DNA of 64,000 nt from an uncultured delta proteobacterium (GCA_963848295.1 CAWKDB010000002.1:256001-320000); one strand, 5' to 3'. Positions 55,242-64,000 are shown, counted from the stretch's first letter. The notes: generated from the letters alone by a model not told the origin. A program made the numbers and translations.

Positions 55242-56624
55242 ATGGCCATCACCCAACCAGCTCATCGTCGGCAGCGCCTCGCGCGCCGAACCCCAGCGAG
55301 CACGGCCCATGTCCGCGCGTCGACGCGCGTCCGACCGGATCGACGGTGAGCGCGACGGCCGCAGCGTCGGTCGCAGCCACGGTCGCTCCCGCCCCGGTCA
55401 AGCGCGCGCTACGGACGGTCGATTCCGATGATCATCTCGCCGCGTACTTTCGGCACCTCTCGGAGCACGAGCTGCTCACGCCCGAGGACGAGCGCGAGCT
55501 CAGCCAAGGCATCGAGGACACCGAGATCCTGACGTGGGAGCGCGTGCTGTCACGGCCGGACGCGATCCGTCCACTGCTCGCGCTGGTCGAGCCGAACCTC
55601 GAGCAGCCTGTGAAGTTCCCGAAGCTGCAGAAGCTCGCCGACGAGATGTCCGCTTCCAAGAAGCTCGCGCAAGGAGCCGCGCGCGCAGAAGCGTCTCGCG
55701 TCGGTCGCGAAGGAAACTGCGGCGAAGCTGCGCACGCTCGACCTCGATCGCGTCCACATCGACGCCGTGGTCCGCGAGCTCTATCGCGCGCGCGAGCTCG
55801 CGCATGCGGGCGAGGAGACGTGGTGGGAAGCCGGCGCGAGCAAGGATGCCGGCGCCTACGTCGATCACGTGCGCCAAGCGTACCGCGATGCGGCGAACCT
55901 GCGCGACGAGTTCGTGCGTGCGAACCTGCGCCTCGTCGTCACGATGGCGCGGCGCTACGATCGCGGCGGCATGCCGCTCGCGGATCTGATCCAAGAGGGC
56001 AACCTCGGCCTGATGCACGCGGTCGCGCGGTTCGACTATCGCCGCGGGCTGCGATTCTCGACCTACGCGTGCTGGTGGATCCGCCATGCGATCGGCCGTG
56101 CGCTCGCCGACAAGGCGCGCGCGGTCCGCATCCCGGTCCACATGCTCGAGGCGCAGCAGCAGCTCGAGAAGGTGCGCCAGGGCCTGATCGGCGAGCTCGG
56201 TCGTCCGCCCACTCCGCAAGAGCTGGCGAAGGCCGCGAAGGTTCCGCTCGCGAAGCTGAACCAGATGCACCGCTACATCATGGGCCAGCCGATGTCGCTC
56301 GATCGGCCGGCGCACGATGACGACGACCGCACGTTCGGCGACACGATGGCCGATCCGGACACCGAGGAGCTGTCGCCGGCGGACCGGATGACGATGCAGA
56401 CGCTGAGCTCGCAGATCAAGCGACTGCTGCACCACCTCTCGCCGATCGAAGCCGACGTGCTGACCAAGCGCTTCGGCCTCGGCGACGACGAGGAGCGCAC
56501 GTTCCGCGAGATCGGCGACCAGTATCACCTGTCGCGCGAGCGCATTCGCCAGATCCAGAACTCGGCACTCGACAAGCTGAAGCGAGCGCTCGAGCGCGAG
56601 CACCGCGGGCATGTGGAGATGTGA
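55242..56624 (+). CDS. Sigma70-family RNA polymerase sigma factor (RpoD/RpoS-like, no region 1.1); frameshifts near 55345 and 55680
   Basis: AGGAG RBS before ATG 55242; [15 protein letters not shown] (1.2), [50 protein letters not shown]. Confidence 0.9.
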
Positions 56625-56648: not shown

Positions 56649-57484
56649 GTGCGACTCTCGATAGCCGACTTTTTTACGCTGCCGAGTCAGAGCGTGAAGC
56701 TCGCCTCGCTCGCGGACGAGGTCGGCTTTGCGCGCTACTGGGTCGGTGAACATCACACCCCGACATCAGTGCGCCAATCCGTTGCTGCTTGCCAGCGTGC
56801 TGGCCGGGATGACGGAGACGATCCGGATCGGCACCGGGGCGATGTTACTGGGGTTGCGCGGTCCGCGACGGCGCTCGCAGAGGATGCGCGGCTCGTGAGC
56901 CAGCTATATGGCGACCGGCTCGATCTCGGGGTGACGAGCGGATGGAGCCGACGCGCTTGCCCGCGACATGCCAGAGCTCGCGAGCTGCTGACGCCGGATC
57001 GCGATCCGCGCTCGCCGCGTTGCCGTACATCGAGGACGCACCGGCACTATGGCTGATGGCGATCAGACGTGCGGAAGCGGCTACGCTCGCGGCGAAGCTG
57101 GGCTCGGCCTTTGCGCATCGTTTCATCACGGCGGAACACGAGAGGGAATTCGCGACCTCGTCGCTCGTTACCGCGACGGGTTCCAGCCCGGCGCCCTCTC
57201 CGAGCCACGCGACAATCGCGATGCTGAGCGGCGTCTGCGGGGTGGACCAACCCGCGCTCGATGCCGCGCGCGGCAGCTACGCCGCGGTCGCAAGCCAGCT
57301 ATCCGGCGGCGCTCGCGCCCGAACAATCTCGTTCGACGGATCGCCACGCGCCGTCGCCGAAACCGCCGCCCGCGAAGGCGAGACCGTCGGCGCCGACGAG
57401 GTGATGCTGCTGTTCCTGCAGACCGGACCCGACGCCGCCGCTAGGCTCGAGCCGGTGCTGGCCGAGATTAACGCGTCAGGTTAG
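56649..57484 (+). CDS. Luciferase-like (LLM class) flavin-dependent oxidoreductase, frameshifted
   Basis: [16 protein letters not shown], then in shifted frames [46 protein letters not shown]. Confidence 0.8.
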
Positions 57485-57629
57485 GGGCCTGCGGCTCGGG
57501 CTCGTTGCCGCATCTTACCAAGGTCCACAACGCGACGCCGCCGTTGATCTTCTCCAGCTTGTCCTTCGACAACGGCTTGATGACGGTCTTGTTGAGGCGA
57601 AGCCTCTTCGGCGTCGAGGTTTTCTTCAT
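57468..57629 (-). CDS. RiPP precursor peptide, class I lanthipeptide-like with double-glycine leader (53 aa)
   Basis: Leader MKKTSTPKRLRLNKTVIKPLSKDKLEKINGG; core [22 protein letters not shown]; same strand as LanC-like gene. Confidence 0.8.
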   Translation of the reverse strand: MKKTSTPKRLRLNKTVIKPLSKDKLEKINGGVALWTLVRCGNEPEPQAPNLTR

Positions 57630-57732
57630 GGCGGGATAATCAGCAACTGCCGCGCCAGCAACCGACCGCAAAGGTTTCGCCGGATTAGCTATCGCTGGAA
57701 CTTCACAGTTCGTGTAGGGCACGCGGCCCGGA

Positions 57733-60700
57733 TCACTTGGAGTGCAGCGCCACGATCTCGCGTAGGTCAGGAACCGGCGCCGATGGGGTCCAGATCGTGG
57801 TCCCGTTGAAGTTTCGGAATACCACGTATCTCGAATTGGGCCCGATACCTACCAACGTCGCGTCATCTGCGATCTCCAGGGCATGGAAGGTATCCAGATC
57901 CCATACCCGAGCGGACGAATCGACCGAGGCGGTGACCAACAGCCCGCCCGCAATGAACCCCGCCGAAGACACCATGTTGGTATGACCCTCGAGCACGCTG
58001 ACTCGCCGCAAGCTCGCCGCGTCCCACACCGGCAACGACACCGCCCCGATGCCGATGAGGAAGCGGCCGTCGGGCGAAAGTATGATCCCGCCGAGATCGG
58101 CGGCGTCGGTGTTACCGATAGGCGCGCCATCTGCGGCGGACCATGCCCGGAGACGCTGATCGCTGGTGAGCGCGAACACGCGGCCGGCGTGCGCGTCGAC
58201 GGCAACGTCCATGGCGACCGCGCCTTCGCCGCTCAAGACCAGCGGCGCCGCGTCCGCGCCAAGGCCTTGCAGCACTACCGCTGCCCTTGAGTCGGTCGTC
58301 CTCGCGAACACGCGATCGGCCGTGACGAAGCCAAGCCGGACGATGCCGGCGCGCAGGCGCGGCAGCGCCCGCGGTCTCGCGCCGTTACCCGCCGAGAGAT
58401 CCGTGACCGACCAGGTGCCGTCGTCGCCGCCGATCACCACGCGTTCGCGCTCGCCGAATGCGACCGCGGCCACGCTCGCCGCGCTCGGGATCGTCGCGAT
58501 CAGCTGACAGGTCGCCGCGTTCCAGACGCGCGCCTCGCGCTCCGCGATCCCGGCGACGACGATCCGATTCCCGCCCGGCTCCCACGCGACGCGGGTCAGG
58601 ATAGCCCCGTTACCGGCCAGGCGGCATGGCGGCGACCCGGGCGCGCCCAGGTCGTGGAGCTCGAGCGAACCGTCGGCCGTTCCGAACGCGACACGATCGG
58701 TCCCCACCGCGATTACGCCCTCGCGCTCCGCGGGGATCTCCCGGTAGTGCGACGCCTTCGCGAGGTTCCACTCGACCACGCGGTGATCCCACGACGCGGT
58801 GGCGAGCGTGCGCCCATCCGGCGAGAACTTCATGTGTGCGATCCGATCCGTGTGCCCGTTGAGCTCGCCGGTACTCAGGCCAGAGGGCACCGACCACAGC
58901 CGGACACCGCCGTCGACGCTCGCGCTCGCGAGCGTGTCGTCTCGAGGCGAAAAGGCCTCTGCCCAGATCCCGGCATGGTGCGCCTGGAGTGTCGCGATCG
59001 GCTTGTTGGTGGCAACGTCCCAGAGCCAAACCGCGTTGTCGTCGCCGCCCGTCGCGAAGTGCTTGCCGTCATGGCTGAACACCACGACGTTGATCGTCTT
59101 GCCTTCGTGGGCGGGGTAGCGCGCGACCACGCGGCCCTCGCTCGAGACGAGCACGACCTCGCCGCTCTCGTCGGCGAACGCAACCCGATCGCCGCTCGGA
59201 CTCGCCGCTGCGACCTGGAGGTTCGATCCGATCTCGACGCGCGCGAGCTTGGCGAACGTGTGCGCATCCCACCACGTCACGACGCCCTCGGCTTGCCAGG
59301 TCACGATGCATTGGCCGCTGGCACAGAACGCCCCACCCGCGACGCCGTGGTCAACCAGCTTGGCCGCCAGCGCGCCGTCCCCGACGTTCCACACTCCGAC
59401 CCCCCGTCCGCTGGCGAGGAGCTGCGAGCCGTCCGCGCTGAACGCGAGGTCGTAGACGCGGGTGCCGGCGCCGGTGTCGATCGCGGCGACCGGCTGTTCG
59501 CTGGCGAGCGACCACACGTCGACGCGATGGTCGAGCTCGCCGCTCGCGAGCAGCTGGCCGTTGGGACTGTACGCTAGCGCGTACGTGGTTGACCCGGTCT
59601 TGAGCGACCGGATCGGTGCGTTGGTCGCGGTATTCCATTCGATCACCGCGCCGTCGTTCCCCGCCGTCGCTAGGCGCGCGCCGTCCGGGCTGAACGCGAC
59701 CGCGAACACCTTGTCCGAGTGCGCGGTCAGCACCGCGTCTTCGGCCGCGTGGTCCGCAGCGCCTCCTCGATCATGAACCTGCACCGCGGGCCCGGTGTCG
59801 CCCATGCTGGTACGCCATGGCGAGTGGCTCGAGCGCCTTGGACTTTTCGCCTTGAAGCATCAGCAGCCGACCGCGGTCGACGGTTGCGTCCAGCAACAGC
59901 TGCTGCGCCGCTCTGCTCGGAGCGTCGGGTCGCGCGATTGGCTACGACAGGCCGATGACGAACCGATGCAGCGAGCAGCGCGATGGCGGCGAGAGCGATT
60001 CGGATGCGTCGCCCGCGCGCGGATTCGGCGACGCTGGCCGCACCGAACTCGGCCTCCGCCGTCGTGACCGCCGACACGTTGCGCTTGTGCCAGAGCTGAT
60101 ACTCGGCGAGCGCGTCGCCGCGCCAGAAAGGCCCCGAGGCCGGTCCGCGATCGGCCCACTGCTTCGCGCCGATGCGCAGCTGGGCGTGAAACGTGAGCCT
60201 CGGCATCCTCGCGGCGCCATTCGGCGAGTCGAGGCCATGCCGACACGAGGGCCTCGTGGATGATCTCGACCGTGCCATCGCCGCGTTCGCTCTCCGCGGA
60301 GATGACGAGCCGCGACGAAATCAAGCGCTCGATCACCCTCCGACCTTCGGCCCCACCGCCGAGGAGCTGTTCTAACTCGTCACGTAGCAGTACCGCGCGC
60401 GTACCCTCGAACGTAACGAGATGGCGGAACATGGTCCGCACGACGGTTCGCTCTGACGTGGAAAGCGCCTCGACCGTCTCGTCCGCATGACGCGCCAAGG
60501 CGCCGGCAACCCCGCCGATCGCTTCATAGGCCTTGCGCGGTAACTGGCGAAAGTGCCGATCGCGTAGCTCCCACAAGCGCGAAGCCGCGAACGAGATCAG
60601 CGCCACAGCCGCGGGTGTGTCCGCGGCCTCGGCGACCATCCGCTCGGGCAGCGAGGGGTCGTCGAACTCGTAGCCAAGGCGGCGAGCCGGCTCGACGATG

Positions 60701-63046
60701 ACGCGCGAAAGTGCCTCCGCGTTCATGGGCCCGAGCAGATGCAGGCCACGAGCGAGCATCGCGTCAAAGCCCGGCAGCTGCTGGGCGCGAATCAAGAAGT
60801 CGTCCCGCAATGTGATGATCACGCGGAGCTTGCGGCCGGCGTCGCTGCCGAGCGCGAGCAACACTTGCGCGAACCGCTGGCGTTCGTCGTCGGCGCAGCC
60901 GAGTGTGAACAGCTCCTCGAACTGGTCCACGACAACGATGAGCCCGTCCTGGTCAGCCTCCTGCCGACGCGCGACGTCTCCCGCCAGGTCCGCAGGAGCA
61001 AGGTCGACGGACTCGGACAATCCGAGCTGCGCTAGCAACTGACGCAGCGGGGTGCGTCCGGGGCGTGTGGTGACCGAGTGCCATCCGGTCATCGCGGGAA
61101 CGACGCCGGCATTGACGAACGAGCTCTTGCCGACGCCCGATGGCCCGACAACGGCGACGAACGGCTCGAGGACAAGCCTGTTCACGAGGTGCTCGGTCTC
61201 GCGCTCGCGGCCGAGAAACAGCGCGGTGTCGCTCGGAATGTACGCCAACAAGCCGCGATACGGGCTCGCGTCGTCGACGACCGATGGATCCGACGGCGCG
61301 GGCGCGAACAACTGGGTGCCGAACCAATCCCACAGCTCGCTGTCGCGGTGCTCGAACCCATACTGCGGCACCACGAGCCGCGCCGCCGCTCCCTTCGGTC
61401 CGGCCAGCATGAAGAGATGCTCCGCGTGGCCGGGCACGGCGACGTGGACCTGGATCAGCGGCCATAGCGACAACAACGGCACACCCGTCGCATCGACGAT
61501 GACCGGACGGCCGTCCGGAACGCTGCGTTGCAGCGCGACGGATTCGACGCGGTCCACTGCGTGCACCCATCCAGGATTCAGCGCGGTCTCCGTGGCCGAC
61601 GGCGAGCTGGTAGTCGAGCAAGAACGCCAACGACCGAAGTAGCGCGGTGATGATGGGCAACTCGCGTGCGATCGCGATCGTCGCAGCGGCCTCCGATGTA
61701 TCGGTGAGCGCTTCCACGAGCGAGCCCTCGACCACCGCGGCAAACGCGTCGCTTTGGTGAATGAGAAGCGCGATTTCAGGAACCGGATACGCGTCCGGCA
61801 GGGTCGCGAACGGCTGCGTCAGTTGCCGCGCGAGTGAAATCCATCCCGCCGACGACAGACCATGGCGGCGCAGGTCGCGCAATAACTCTTGCGCTCGTGG
61901 CGAGTCCGCCTCGCCGCCGGAGCCCACGCGCGTTCGACAGGCGACGGCCAGGATCCCGACGAACCAGCAGGCGACGTGCGCGATCCCGCGCAGCGCCTCT
62001 CTTGCCTGGTGCGCGTTCTTCGCGGCGTCGTACGCCGTGACCGCATCCGCGAGCGGTCGCGGCGCACAAGTCAGGAACGCCTGCCGGATACCCTCCTCGA
62101 TCTGCGGCAGATCCGCGGTCTGCGTGCCGATGCCCGCGGCAACGCGAAACGCTTCCGCGAGCTCGAGCACATTGCCATAGCGGGCGTGAGCGGTCCTTGC
62201 GGTTGCCCGGCGGAGAACGATATCGAGGTCCGGGGAGAACCCATCACCGAGTGCCGGGATGGTCGATCGCGCATGGGCCCGCGCGATCTCCATCATGGTC
62301 TTGCCGGTAAACGCCAAACGACCGGTGAGCGTCTCGAACACGAGCGCCCCGATCGCGTATTGATCCGCGGCCGGTCCCGCGCTCGCCGGATCGACCCATA
62401 GCTCCGGCGCCATGTACGGCGGTGATCCGACGATCGTACCGCGCTGAGTCGTCGTGCTCGCTGGGCTATCCGGAAGCTCGTCGGAGCCTCGCTCGACCGC
62501 GGGGTGATCGTCGCCGATCGCTCGCGCGACTCCGAAATCGAGGAGTTTCGGGAGCAGACGTCCCGCGCGCGAGATCACCATCACGTTGTCGGGCTTGATG
62601 TCGCGGTGGATGATCCCTTGCTCGTGCGCCGTCTGGACGACCTCGCAGATGCGATCGAGCAACGGGATGAACCGCTCGAGGGGCATCGGCCCCTGCGCTT
62701 CCACGACGGCGCGCAGCGACGCGCCACGCACTAACTCCATCGCGATCCAGAACACGCCGTCGGGCTCGGCGCCGAAATCGTAGATGTGGGCCGCATAAGG
62801 ATGGTCGAATCGCGTCGCGAGCTTGGCCTCGCGTAGAAACCGCTGGACCCGCGTCTCGTCGAGACTGCCTTCGCGGAGAACCTTCACGATCGCTTCGCGC
62901 CCCAGCCCCGGCTGTTCGGCGAGATAGACGTCGCCGAATCCACCCGCGCCGACTTGTTCGCGCAACACGAAGCCGCCCAACGTTCGCGTCGTCAAGGCGC
63001 CCGGATGCCCGGCTCCTAGTCCCCCGGTCAACGCGCCGGTTGCCAC
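57733..63046 (-). CDS. Giant Ser/Thr kinase - helical domain - nSTAND1 NTPase - TM - WD40 protein (about 1770 aa if joined); several frameshifts
   Basis: Kinase GAGGFG, HRDIKPDN, DFG, YMAPE; nSTAND1 PYRGL, FLGRERE, GPSGVGKSS (Walker A), VVVDQFEELFT (Walker B), TLRDDF, IHEALVSAWPRL; many WD40 repeats (FSPDGARLATAGNDG, FSPDGRTLATASWD). Confidence 0.88.
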
Positions 63047-63074
63047 GTCGTCACGATACCACTCGCTGAATCAC

Positions 63075-64000
63075 TCAGAGCCCGCCAGGGAGCAGCAACT
63101 CGTTCCATCTCGGCTCTACGGGCTCGAGGCCCGCGATCAAGGCGAGGCCGACGCCGACCGCACCATCCCAGAAATCGAGTGGATCCGCGCTGTCGAGCCG
63201 CGAGTCGAGAGCGCGCTCGAGCCAGCGTCGCGCGCAGACGGCTTGTTGTTCAAGCCCGTCGCGCTGATACACCCGGTTGGACAGATGCCCGAGCCCGGCG
63301 GCCCCGTGACACATTCCCGCGTCCTCGACGCCAGCCTCGTCGGTACCGAGCGCCATCCAGCTATCGTTGATCTCGGCGATCTGATCGGGCGGCAGGGCAG
63401 CCGTGAGGGCCGCGGCTATCCCTGGCCGTCCGTAGCACCACGCCTCTCGGACTCCGTGCCGTCGCGTTGCGTCGACCCATAGCGGAAACGACCCGTCGGA
63501 GTTGCGCCACGATAGCAACCACCGGGTCGCGGCATCGCGCAGCGGCACCGCGCCGTCGGGAACGTCAGGGCGCGCCGAGATCCGCGTCAGTAATGCGATC
63601 ACGGCGGGTACGCCGTGTGCGACGCCGCAGTTGTACATCCCCTGGGGCCACTCGGCGGCTACCGGCGCAGGTAGCAGTGCAGGAGACGTGTGCCAGGTCG
63701 CGCCTCGCTCGGTGAGGCGCGCGCGAGCCTTCAAGTGATCGACGATCCGTGAGAGTCCAGGCGCGACCGCCGCCGTGTCACCGCGAGCGAGCAAATAGCC
63801 GCCGAATCCAACGAGACCCGCGTGAAAGTCATAAGGCACAGCATCGTCCGGCGGACCGGCGAGCACGGCCAACACGGCGTCGTCGGTCGCGGTAAGCACC
63901 TCATCGACATCGTCGGCTACCTGCCCTGCAACCCAGGCGGCAAACGCTAGCCCGCGCGTGAATGACAGCGAGTCCGGGCCACGCGTGAAGACGGCTTCAA
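63075..64000 (-). CDS. lanC: Lanthionine synthetase C-like cyclase (5' end outside window)
   Basis: Frame open to the window edge; YDFHAGLVG, GVAHG (catalytic His), AWCYG and GMCHGAAG (Zn ligands), GAVGVGLAL. Confidence 0.9.
   Translation of the reverse strand, partial: EAVFTRGPDSLSFTRGLAFAAWVAGQVADDVDEVLTATDDAVLAVLAGPPDDAVPYDFHAGLVGFGGYLLARGDTAAVAPGLSRIVDHLKARARLTERGATWHTSPALLPAPVAAEWPQGMYNCGVAHGVPAVIALLTRISARPDVPDGAVPLRDAATRWLLSWRNSDGSFPLWVDATRRHGVREAWCYGRPGIAAALTAALPPDQIAEINDSWMALGTDEAGVEDAGMCHGAAGLGHLSNRVYQRDGLEQQAVCARRWLERALDSRLDSADPLDFWDGAVGVGLALIAGLEPVEPRWNELLLPGGL

Follow-up and report, generated by a model that had tools for sequence, protein, structure and literature searches.

A putative class I lanthipeptide satellite cassette in a soil myxobacterium, with a giant STAND kinase as candidate receptor for its peptide

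In a soil myxobacterium, a lanC-type gene, a giant STAND kinase gene and a lanthipeptide precursor gene lie side by side at the end of a 64,000-nucleotide stretch of DNA (the window). We interpret this locus as a satellite of a class I lanthipeptide system encoded elsewhere in the genome; in this cassette the giant protein may well serve as receptor or regulator of the peptide rather than as a biosynthetic enzyme, and put the probability of this interpretation at about 0.5. A biosynthetic role of the giant kinase is unlikely.

The gene order agrees with the one originally predicted. On the minus strand, the LanC-type lanthionine cyclase (374 residues; Pfam LANC_like, E 1.7e-22) occupies positions 63075–64000 and continues to the equivalent of 64199, its start lying beyond the window, two bases after the stop of a CoA-transferase B-like gene. 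Its own stop at 63075 is followed by a gap of 28 nt, the predicted spacing, and then by the GTG of the giant gene at 63046. The giant gene (57733–63046, minus strand) is separated by 103 nt, close to the 100 bp expected, from the double-glycine precursor gene (57468–57629, minus strand; 53 residues encoded by 57629–57471). Onto this gene converges, as foreseen, a luciferase-like monooxygenase (LLM) gene on the plus strand (56649–57484), which has about three frame breaks, matches Bac_luciferase at E 1.1e-8 over only 26 residues in Pfam, and lies within a species-specific insert. It had been suggested that lanB, a lyase or a C39 peptidase ABC transporter might be found past 64000; the following 12 kb contain none of them.

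The precursor consists of a 31-residue leader ending in GG (residues 30–31) and a 22-residue core. The leader belongs to class I: residues 1–31 align to positions 1–32 of the NCBIfam profile NF038153 (lant_leader_L1a) with 25.8 bits against a cut-off of 22 (E 8.9e-6), which the precursors of two related loci, L017 and L014, also pass. With a leader HMM built in this analysis the match has an E-value of 1.3e-13; TIGR01847, with a cut-off of 15.7 bits, gives 15.2. The core contains two threonines and one cysteine, a composition capable of forming a thioether, and the ring itself is predicted from the sequence. The other frames of the precursor offer no alternative core. Nine members of the leader family occur in this genome, five of them adjoining one of its 13 nSTAND1 genes.

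The giant gene had been described as encoding a kinase, an nSTAND1 module, a membrane helix and WD40 repeats in a single protein. The domains are all present, with a hydrophobic segment between nSTAND1 and WD40, but they do not form one open reading frame in the assembly, where at least five frame breaks distribute them over several frames; the intact orthologues in genomes of the same genus have open frames of 1808–1961 residues. The N-terminal domain (62195–62965, minus strand, as for all following domains) is a Hanks-type Ser/Thr kinase (Pfam Pkinase, E 3.5e-36) with the GxGxxG, VAIK-type lysine, HRDIKPDN, DFG and APE elements, and in our alignment A1 its motifs GAGGFGDV, K55, HRDIKPDN, DFG and SPPYMAPE are either invariant or retained. 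It is followed by a conserved linker domain (61568–62194), which is all-helical in an AlphaFold2 model (pLDDT 92.7) and for which neither Pfam yielded a family nor Foldseek a PDB match at E≤0.001. Its best VIA scores (Z = 8.7) were to Roquin/HEPN-like helical bundles, under VIA's own bar for helical folds. A small β-rich piece precedes nSTAND1, and the linker was the sole unassigned domain that was folded. The nSTAND1 NTPase (60190–61263; PF20703, E 2.8e-95) covers profile positions 1–359 of 379 and has the P-loop GPSGVGKSS. A three-frame reading locates the membrane-helix segment at 59945–59999, where two close frame breaks cut it, and the 690-residue WD40 β-propeller region (Pfam WD40, E 3e-51) extends over 57736–59805.

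All 60 complete orthologues scanned have a strongly hydrophobic 19-mer at the position of the membrane helix. Exactly one hydrophobic helix, some 70 residues past nSTAND1, splits the ATP-using part from the WD40 part in 54 of 56 orthologues; judged by hydropathy alone, the WD40 domain is thus predicted to lie outside the cytoplasm. Compared with the orthologue in genome G005, kinase and linker are 62% identical, nSTAND1 58% and WD40 31%, and in five of six close pairs WD40 has diverged more quickly than the remainder of the giant. In the pair L058/L089, an identity of 85–96% drops to 49–70% in WD40, and the peptides of the two loci have similar leaders and different cores.

The LanC keeps the motifs AHG, WCYG and CHG, aligned with those of LanB-partnered LanCs and of PDB entry 8byk, which we take to be the catalytic histidine and the Cys/Cys/His zinc ligands of a stand-alone LanC. 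In a quick tree it groups with seven of eight LanB-adjacent LanCs (SH-aLRT 94). A LanB gene was found neither between 56649 and 64000 nor in the 12 kb beyond; the genome's single full LanB is encoded at C2:785180-788344, 470 kb from the locus. Likewise, the precursor has its GG and the locus no C39-ABC transporter, and the only exporter set of the genome (C39-ABC, GAF-HlyD and OEP) is located next to LanB, at C2:790–794 kb, in a cluster holding no LanC or LanA. Of the other genomes with LanB-less cassettes, five of five have a LanB elsewhere. All four LanC-precursor pairs in this genome adjoin a sensor kinase: two STK-STAND-WD40 proteins, one STK-TPR protein and one GAF-PAS histidine kinase.

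To judge recurrence, we used an 80-locus set of Myxococcota MAGs and counted on the 42 loci in which the giant is complete and flanked on either side by 3 kb or more. Of these, 20 have a precursor with a leader of this family within 2.5 kb and 13 a LanC within 3 kb, counts that come from related, non-independent genomes and overlapping locus sets (L027 is on the same contig as L017). LanB is present in 6, C39-ABC in 5 and GAF-HlyD in 10 of the 42. The first five relatives' loci have intact giants with precursors, and LanB, LanC, C39-ABC, GAF-HlyD and FHA-sigma-54 activators are spread among them. Since the neighborhood of lanC, STAND kinase and precursor recurs beside orthologues of the giant, it is not a chance insertion, which had been named as the outcome that would overturn the proposed association. 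The leader HMM found no peptide in 22 of the 42 loci and 29 have no LanC, which, like the single cysteine of the core, speaks against our interpretation.

A sigma-54-type promoter, TGGCGCGGCAGTTGCT, lies at 57642–57657 on the minus strand. It contains the GG and GC of a −24/−12 element, fits 10 of 11 consensus positions and ends 12 nt before the ATG of the precursor. It is the only site in the window with at most one mismatch; the genome has 131 such sites in total, as well as rpoN. Sites fitting at least 9 of 11 positions, whose background is 0.014 per 220 nt, precede 7 of 11 giant-adjacent peptides and none of five others. In a wider set they precede 20 of 41 peptides, 15 of them 28–40 nt before the ATG, so that 15 further loci have the site placed as it is here. 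An FHA-type sigma-54 activator is encoded at most 4.1 kb from the giant in 12 of the 42 loci. No sigma-54 activator gene was found within 25 kb of the locus studied here; six candidates exist in the genome, and the nearest orthologue of the cassette-linked ones, at C10:1015038, is 61% identical.

From these observations we propose the following mechanism. Threonine or serine residues of the core would be dehydrated in trans by the only LanB of the genome (C2:785 kb), and the LanC of the cassette would then form a thioether with the one cysteine, for example from Thr5 to Cys9 of the core. The single C39-ABC/GAF-HlyD/OEP exporter would then cleave after GG and export the peptide, which in its mature form may bind the outward-facing WD40 domain. 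Binding would cause the STAND NTPase to switch or oligomerize, activating the kinase, and phosphothreonine could recruit the FHA-type enhancer-binding protein, here encoded in trans, with the product of C10:1015038 as a candidate. The activator would fire the sigma-54 promoter, resulting in an autoinduction or recognition loop. With LanB and the exporter 470 kb away and no activator within 25 kb, three of the steps must work in trans, which counts against the proposal. The earlier suggestion that the giant is a receptor with kinase output agrees with five observations: the helix topology, the divergence of the WD40 part, the promoter, the FHA activators and the histidine kinase at one LanC-precursor pair.

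More tentatively, the cassettes may constitute a modular peptide language across Myxococcota, in which variable class I lanthipeptides are each read by their own membrane STAND receptor kinase through its outward WD40 domain. Phosphothreonine would act on FHA-type sigma-54 activators and these on a leaderless precursor transcript, and one hub of LanB and exporter would serve dispersed, swappable satellites of LanC, precursor and receptor. If true, bacteria would have here their own version of the NLR and receptor-kinase logic of eukaryotes, applied to RiPP signals or kin recognition.

The original prediction had also considered that the kinase supplies phosphorylation in a split pathway similar to those of classes III and IV, with the kinase phosphorylating Ser/Thr of the core, the phosphate being eliminated, and the stand-alone LanC closing the ring, so that LanB is not needed. 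A Ser/Thr-kinase-like domain is indeed employed by class III/IV enzymes (PMC10604976), and 10 of the 13 LanC-positive loci have no LanB in the available DNA. Further, zinc ligands are missing from the LanC-like proteins that accompany the nearest orthologues of the giant (L017, L025, L026), and reportedly also from the class III cyclase domain (10.1101/2020.03.13.990614), which we counted in favor of such a pathway. Nevertheless we regard it as very unlikely, and the analysis did not support it. The leader is of class I, the LanC of the window has its zinc ligands and falls in the tree among LanCs partnered by a LanB, and LanB is available in trans, both here and in the five other genomes. In the linker, the one unassigned domain that was folded, neither Pfam nor the model, a helical bundle without a clear match, revealed a lyase. 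LanC and kinase are separated by a stop codon and the 28-nt gap, and the tests for one-polypeptide LanKC/LanL enzymes scored far below their cut-offs (NF038150, 39.5 bits versus 650; NF038151, 18.2 versus 575). A histidine kinase takes the same place at another LanC-precursor pair, cassettes with cysteine-free cores and no LanC exist (L018, C10:4158681, L087), and such an enzyme would have no use for a STAND switch, a membrane helix or 690 residues of WD40. Scarcely credible, in our view, is a guardian function resembling that of LanCL proteins, in which LanC would add a thiol to dehydroamino acids at the phosphorylated sites of the kinase and the small peptide would be unrelated. Human LanC-like proteins reportedly bind kinases (10.1101/2020.03.13.990614), eukaryotic LanC enzymes add thiols between molecules (PMC9934072), and in this genome LanC lies beside kinases of three kinds. 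Yet 17 of 18 peptides at most 3 kb from a LanC have a cysteine in the core (the 18th has no parsed core) and most are Ser/Thr-rich, peptide and LanC often share an apparent operon (L017, L051, L084, L025, L026), and the histidine kinase partner has no phospho-Ser/Thr activation loop. A third possibility is an NLR-like conflict sensor, whose STAND-WD40 part detects a foreign cue, be it a phage, the peptide of a competitor or a signal from the cell envelope, and whose kinase turns on the lanthipeptide as a weapon, without self-sensing. In 10.1101/2023.09.22.558884, nSTAND1 proteins are described as sensors and placed among conflict systems, which points to a different kind of role than that of a peptide receptor. 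The hypervariability of the WD40 part is also compatible with this, as is the cassette being a species-specific insert, missing from the corresponding site in all six genomes of the same genus examined. On the other hand, the giant is fixed beside one particular peptide gene, and its sensor diverges together with the peptide core as the leader stays alike, for which a lock-and-key pair is the simpler explanation; we therefore consider a conflict sensor unlikely. The two readings differ only in the ligand, as the output logic of kinase, FHA activator and sigma-54 promoter is the same.

The cassette could also be a decayed remnant, a dead insert of this strain, left without LanB, exporter or activator, whose giant and LLM genes are genuinely frameshifted. 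From tblastn with the intact G005 orthologue and three-frame reading, the giant gene changes frame near 61543, ∼60195, ∼59963, ∼59947, ∼59908 and ∼59805, and together with those of the LLM gene about eight breaks fall into a 4.9-kb patch, whereas the adjacent 1558-residue ORF, LanC and the kinase domain are unbroken. Partner genes are missing within 12–25 kb, and another giant of the genome (C2:726 kb) is broken too. The break at 61543 is the only one that can be compared with an independent contig, none covering the five between 59800 and 60200 (the one near 60195 in a TTT run). It consists of one extra T (GGATTCG), and a 263-nt contig of run X1, otherwise identical over 61299–61562, has one base fewer there; omitting this base leaves the frame open from 63046 to ∼60195. 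Because the sole break covered by an independent contig is absent from it, assembly errors are likelier than decay and probably account for at least one of the breaks. Moreover, the five contigs from X1 agree with the patch over 1,079 nt without a substitution, no in-frame nonsense change was seen beyond those explained by the frame path, and the patch ignores gene boundaries, running through LLM, the surroundings of the precursor and two thirds of the giant, as would fit a poor consensus in a strain-variable island. Decay thus appears rather doubtful to us. The precursor is encoded within this patch too, and an error may have entered its core; like the breaks in the giant, this counts against our interpretation.

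The locus resembles several known systems. Class I lantibiotic clusters such as those of nisin (NisRK) and subtilin (SpaRK) are autoinduced through LanRK, and share with it a leader-bearing precursor, a LanC, a LanB in the genome and a membrane sensor kinase beside the precursor, there to switch on a promoter in response to the mature peptide. In contrast to the histidine kinase and response regulator of LanRK, the locus has a Hanks-type Ser/Thr kinase with STAND and WD40, whose output would go to a sigma-54 activator with an FHA domain; the locus itself encodes neither LanB nor exporter nor activator, and the leader ends in GG, fitting C39-ABC export. The double-glycine peptide pheromone circuits ComC/ComAB/ComDE and BlpC/BlpAB/BlpHR likewise combine a GG-leader peptide, a genomic C39-peptidase ABC exporter and a membrane kinase paired with the peptide, with both sensor and peptide variable. 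Here the host is Gram-negative, the precursor is of the lanthipeptide type and accompanied by LanC, the Ser/Thr kinase has a STAND switch and the promoter is of the sigma-54 type. PknD of Mycobacterium tuberculosis, a receptor-type Ser/Thr kinase with an outer β-propeller, has the same succession of N-terminal cytoplasmic Hanks kinase, one membrane helix and C-terminal propeller, predicted in our case to lie outside; it differs from the giant, which has 600 residues of helical linker and nSTAND1 between kinase and helix, a WD40 propeller and a dedicated peptide gene. In Myxococcus xanthus, FHA-domain sigma-54 enhancer-binding proteins work with Ser/Thr kinases, and both systems combine an FHA/AAA+/HTH activator gene beside the gene of a Ser/Thr kinase with a target that has a sigma-54 promoter. 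In our case the target would be a lanthipeptide precursor whose transcript is almost leaderless, and the activator is not adjacent in the window. LanKC and LanL (10.1101/2020.03.13.990614; PMC10604976) also bring Ser/Thr-kinase-like and LanC-like domains together beside a precursor, but carry lyase, kinase and cyclase on one polypeptide. Our locus has LanC and kinase in two genes, a precursor leader of class I and no lyase that was found, and its kinase is fused to sensor modules that follow a membrane helix. With the nSTAND1 NTPases of conflict systems (10.1101/2023.09.22.558884) the giant shares the NTPase family, a variable C-terminal sensor and an N-terminal effector; here, this effector is a kinase, the sensor is predicted to lie outside by virtue of a membrane helix, and a RiPP precursor is the constant partner.

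The gene calls bear out the arrangement proposed for this end of the window in the original prediction. On the minus strand, a LANC_like gene (stop 63075, start at the equivalent of 64199, past the window end) comes first in transcription order. It is followed after 28 nt by the giant gene (63046-57733), which encodes a Ser/Thr kinase, a helical linker, an nSTAND1 domain, a membrane helix and a WD40 region, and after a further 103 nt by the gene of the 53-residue precursor peptide (57629-57471), the last of the series. A luciferase-like monooxygenase (LLM) gene on the plus strand (56649-57484) converges on the peptide gene. Upstream of LanC and on the same strand, a CoA-transferase B-like gene ends 2 bases from the LanC ATG; beyond it lie genes resembling CoA-transferase A and an aminotransferase, and ORFs of 669 and 1558 residues, all named by eye on the basis of their translations and not with a library. 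A LanB, lyase or C39-ABC transporter gene, for which the prediction had pointed past 64000, was not found in those 12 kb. Scanning 57300-64000 for sigma-70 promoters and terminators gave no promoter-like and two terminator-like sites, against 3.8 expected of the latter, and is uninformative on co-transcription. For the giant gene, the closest public sequences come without exception from Myxococcota MAGs, most of them titled Kofleriaceae, and the best has 80% identity over 493 residues; the source genome itself (G000), in which the window occupies C2:256001-320000, is an assembly of 7.78 Mb in 11 contigs, 85% complete.

An orthologue of the CoA-transferase B gene is present in 28 of 30 same-genus genomes, and in the six genomes whose site we fetched, no LanC, nSTAND1, WD40 or gene like this LLM occurs there, so that we regard 56.63-64.2 kb as a species-specific insert. 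It is bordered by a gene for a sigma-70-family factor of 285 residues with RpoD-like C-terminal regions only (55767-56621, plus strand), with about 90% conservation in three genomes of the genus. In one relative (G019) this gene directly abuts the CoA-transferase gene; in two others (G011, G020) the two are separated by peptidase and arginine-pathway-like genes. GC content does not differ between the insert and the flank at 54-56.6 kb.

Elsewhere in the phylum the combination recurs. In five relatives' loci, which were fetched first, the giant gene stood beside a precursor, with LanB, LanC, HlyD, C39-ABC, GAF-HlyD and an FHA/sigma-54 activator spread among them. A search for related loci then gave 308 relatives across Myxococcota, with Haliangium, Kofleria and Archangium among them, from which 80 loci were kept. 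A giant ORF could be assigned in 70 of these, and 42 were complete and had flanks of 3 kb or more on either side. Precursor and LanC recurred beside the giant gene: a leader-family peptide lay within 2.5 kb of the giant gene in 20 of the 42 loci and a LanC gene within 3 kb in 13, counts that include non-independent related genomes (one locus, L027, repeats L017). An FHA-type activator was found within 4.1 kb in 12 loci, GAF-HlyD in 10, LanB in six and C39-ABC in five. The exact order of the window, with LanC upstream on the same strand, is absent from the other loci examined, where LanC occurs on either side and either strand. The LLM gene was considered as a conserved member of the cassette and rejected, as a weak match stands beside a giant gene in only one other locus (L081). 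A literature search outside subscription journals found no published pairing of LanC or a lanthipeptide precursor with a kinase-STAND-WD40 protein.

The window peptide is, on its sequence, a class I LANTHIPEPTIDE precursor and passes the NCBIfam model NF038153 ‘lant_leader_L1a’. A leader HMM built for this analysis found nine members in the source genome and more beside the orthologous giant genes of relatives. Their cores are mostly rich in Cys and Ser/Thr, with a few Cys-free, and the window core contains a single Cys along with two Thr. Cysteine is present in the core of 17 of 18 peptides within 3 kb of LanC (the eighteenth had no parsed core) and of 14 of 18 peptides without LanC in the locus sequence examined. 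Three kinase-paired peptides (L018:8499-8841, G000 C10:4158681-4158812, L087:7317-7681) have short, Cys-free cores rich in Pro and polar residues, with no LanC nearby; such cassettes suggest that the pairing of receptor and peptide is independent of lanthionine chemistry.

The window LanC retains the AHG, WCYG and CHG motifs and, in a quick tree, falls into one clade (SH-aLRT 94) with seven of the eight LanCs that adjoin LanB; one row of this tree (L008) comes from an unpublished genome (G010), and the placement of the window LanC is independent of it. The LanC-like proteins beside the closest orthologues of the giant gene (L017:11625-12617, L025:8346-9353, L026:8545-9600) group apart, in a clade whose members no longer carry the Cys and His zinc ligands and have WAxG and xxG for WCYG and CHG. 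They could be cyclases that work without metal, or binders with no activity. Two further LanC-like proteins carry CCG (L022:10327-11373, L036:15258-16265).

The source genome has a single match to Lant_dehydr_N, at C2:786 kb, and a single C39-ABC, at C2:792 kb. Together with the only GAF-HlyD and an OEP they cluster at C2:785180-794477 (L021:9180-18477), with no LanC or LanA adjoining. The gene content of this region, C2:785-794 kb, is that of a hub for biosynthesis and export; four LanC-precursor satellites lie elsewhere, each beside a sensor kinase. In the window locus and at C2:726-731 kb the kinase is of the STK-STAND-WD40 type; at C1:20.7-24.9 kb (L111:6754-11683) it is an STK-TPR protein of 919 residues, with a divergent ECF-type sigma factor; and at C10:2864-2868 kb (L110:4000-8045) it is a GAF-PAS histidine kinase. 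Since a histidine kinase cannot replace a dehydration step that phosphorylates Ser/Thr, regulation is the simplest role that all these kinases could have in common.

In the giant protein, a strongly hydrophobic 19-mer follows nSTAND1 by about 70 residues in all 60 complete orthologues scanned and is the only one there in 54 of 56. Because kinase and NTPase both require ATP, this topology predicts an outward-facing WD40 part. Compared with the orthologue in G005, identity is 62% over kinase and linker, 58% over nSTAND1 and 31% over WD40, and the WD40 part has the lowest identity in five of six close pairs, which marks it, at the level of sequence identity, as the fastest-evolving part of the protein. 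The linker (61568-62194, minus strand, 209 residues) is a conserved helical domain between kinase and nSTAND1 that is modelled as a helical bundle (pLDDT 92.7). Comparison with solved structures gave no clear relative: Foldseek found none at E≤0.001, a profile search of PDB sequences nothing meaningful, and the best VIA-wide match, to helical bundles, had a Z-score of 8.7, below the tool's bar for helical folds. Complex prediction of the WD40 region with the precursor scored 0.00 against a mark of 0.34, the proteins being folded without alignments and the peptide fold uncertain.

A sigma-54-type site, TGGCGCGGCAGTTGCT (57642-57657, minus strand), matches at 10 of 11 positions, and its end lies 12 nt upstream of the ATG of the precursor. 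No other site in the window has at most one mismatch; this is not significant alone, as 51 of 100 shuffles have one. In a first set, sites with at least 9 of 11 positions preceded seven of 11 giant-adjacent peptides as against none of five others; in a wider set they preceded 20 of 41 peptides, 15 of them at 28-40 nt from the ATG, with a background of 0.014 per 220 nt. The same 12-nt placing is seen in 15 further loci (e.g. L058, L083, L089, L061, L093, L039, L063, L081, L098, L087). Because the -12 element lies only 12 nt before the ATG, the precursor transcript would be nearly leaderless: it would begin 1-3 nt upstream of the start codon and leave no space for a ribosome-binding site. The genome has rpoN; no activator lies within 25 kb of the window locus, and an orthologue of the cassette-linked activators, 61% identical, is found at C10:1015038. 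A near-palindrome, CACTTCAAGTGAAGTG, occurs about 80-120 nt upstream of sigma-54 sites in L015 (twice, upstream of 1753 and 2083), L017 (11455) and at G000 C10:4158887, the last being its only occurrence in that genome within two mismatches, at the C10:4158 cassette. The FHA-type activator may bind at this sequence. In the window, only a half-site-like stretch was found, over the stop codon of the giant gene, and we claim no activator site there.

In lantibiotic producers, two-component systems are known to detect the peptide that the cell itself makes. The best-supported reading of the cassette, to which we give a probability of about one half, is that the giant kinase senses the exported peptide: a Ser/Thr kinase, a STAND switch and an outward WD40 region would take the place of the sensor in such a system, and the signal would reach sigma-54 through the FHA activator. 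Alternatively, the kinase could phosphorylate the core in a split pathway without LanB. LanB was seen in the locus sequence of only three of the 13 LanC-positive loci; all five tested genomes of LanC-positive, LanB-less loci encode it elsewhere, and the regulatory role suggested by the histidine kinase satellite also makes phosphorylation of the core very improbable. If the giant kinase is indeed a receptor, a large class of NLR-like proteins of bacteria, commonly interpreted as immune sensors inside the cell, would gain a function in extracellular ligand sensing, and matched peptide-receptor pairs would be at hand for tests of signalling and kin recognition in social bacteria. A lanthipeptide cluster could then consist of one hub for biosynthesis and numerous satellites under regulation, and mining rules that require LanB beside LanC would miss such split clusters.

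The predicted arrangement is real except for the single ORF: in this assembly the giant gene is broken into several frames. Its frame shifts near 61543, 60195, 59963, 59947, 59908 and 59805, positions on which a GC3 frame plot, tblastn with four intact orthologues, the G005 alignment and three-frame reading agree; same-genus orthologues have open frames of 1808-1961 residues. With about three shifts in the LLM gene, some eight breaks across three genes fall into a 4.9-kb patch (56700-61550) with clean flanks, and the kinase domain, LanC, the sigma-factor gene and the 1558-residue neighbour are unbroken. These breaks could reflect decay of the genes. Among four DNA runs, only a soil metagenome available as contigs (X1, depth about 3) has identical pieces, five in number, covering 1,079 nt of the patch without a substitution. 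Their sole difference is one base left out at 61543, an extra T in the assembly, without which the frame is open from 63046 to the next break; this cover reaches the break at 61543, with the sites near 60195, at 59963-59805 and in the LLM gene lying outside it. Decay is thus the less likely explanation, and the patch is probably a poorly polished stretch in a strain-variable insert. Annotation of 56700-61550 is unreliable unless backed by reads. The precursor lies inside the patch, and other reading frames give no alternative core. A frame break inside nSTAND1 is also present in the second STK-STAND-WD40 gene of the same contig (C2:726486-727557, L022), after which come a Cys-rich precursor gene and one for a LanC-like protein.
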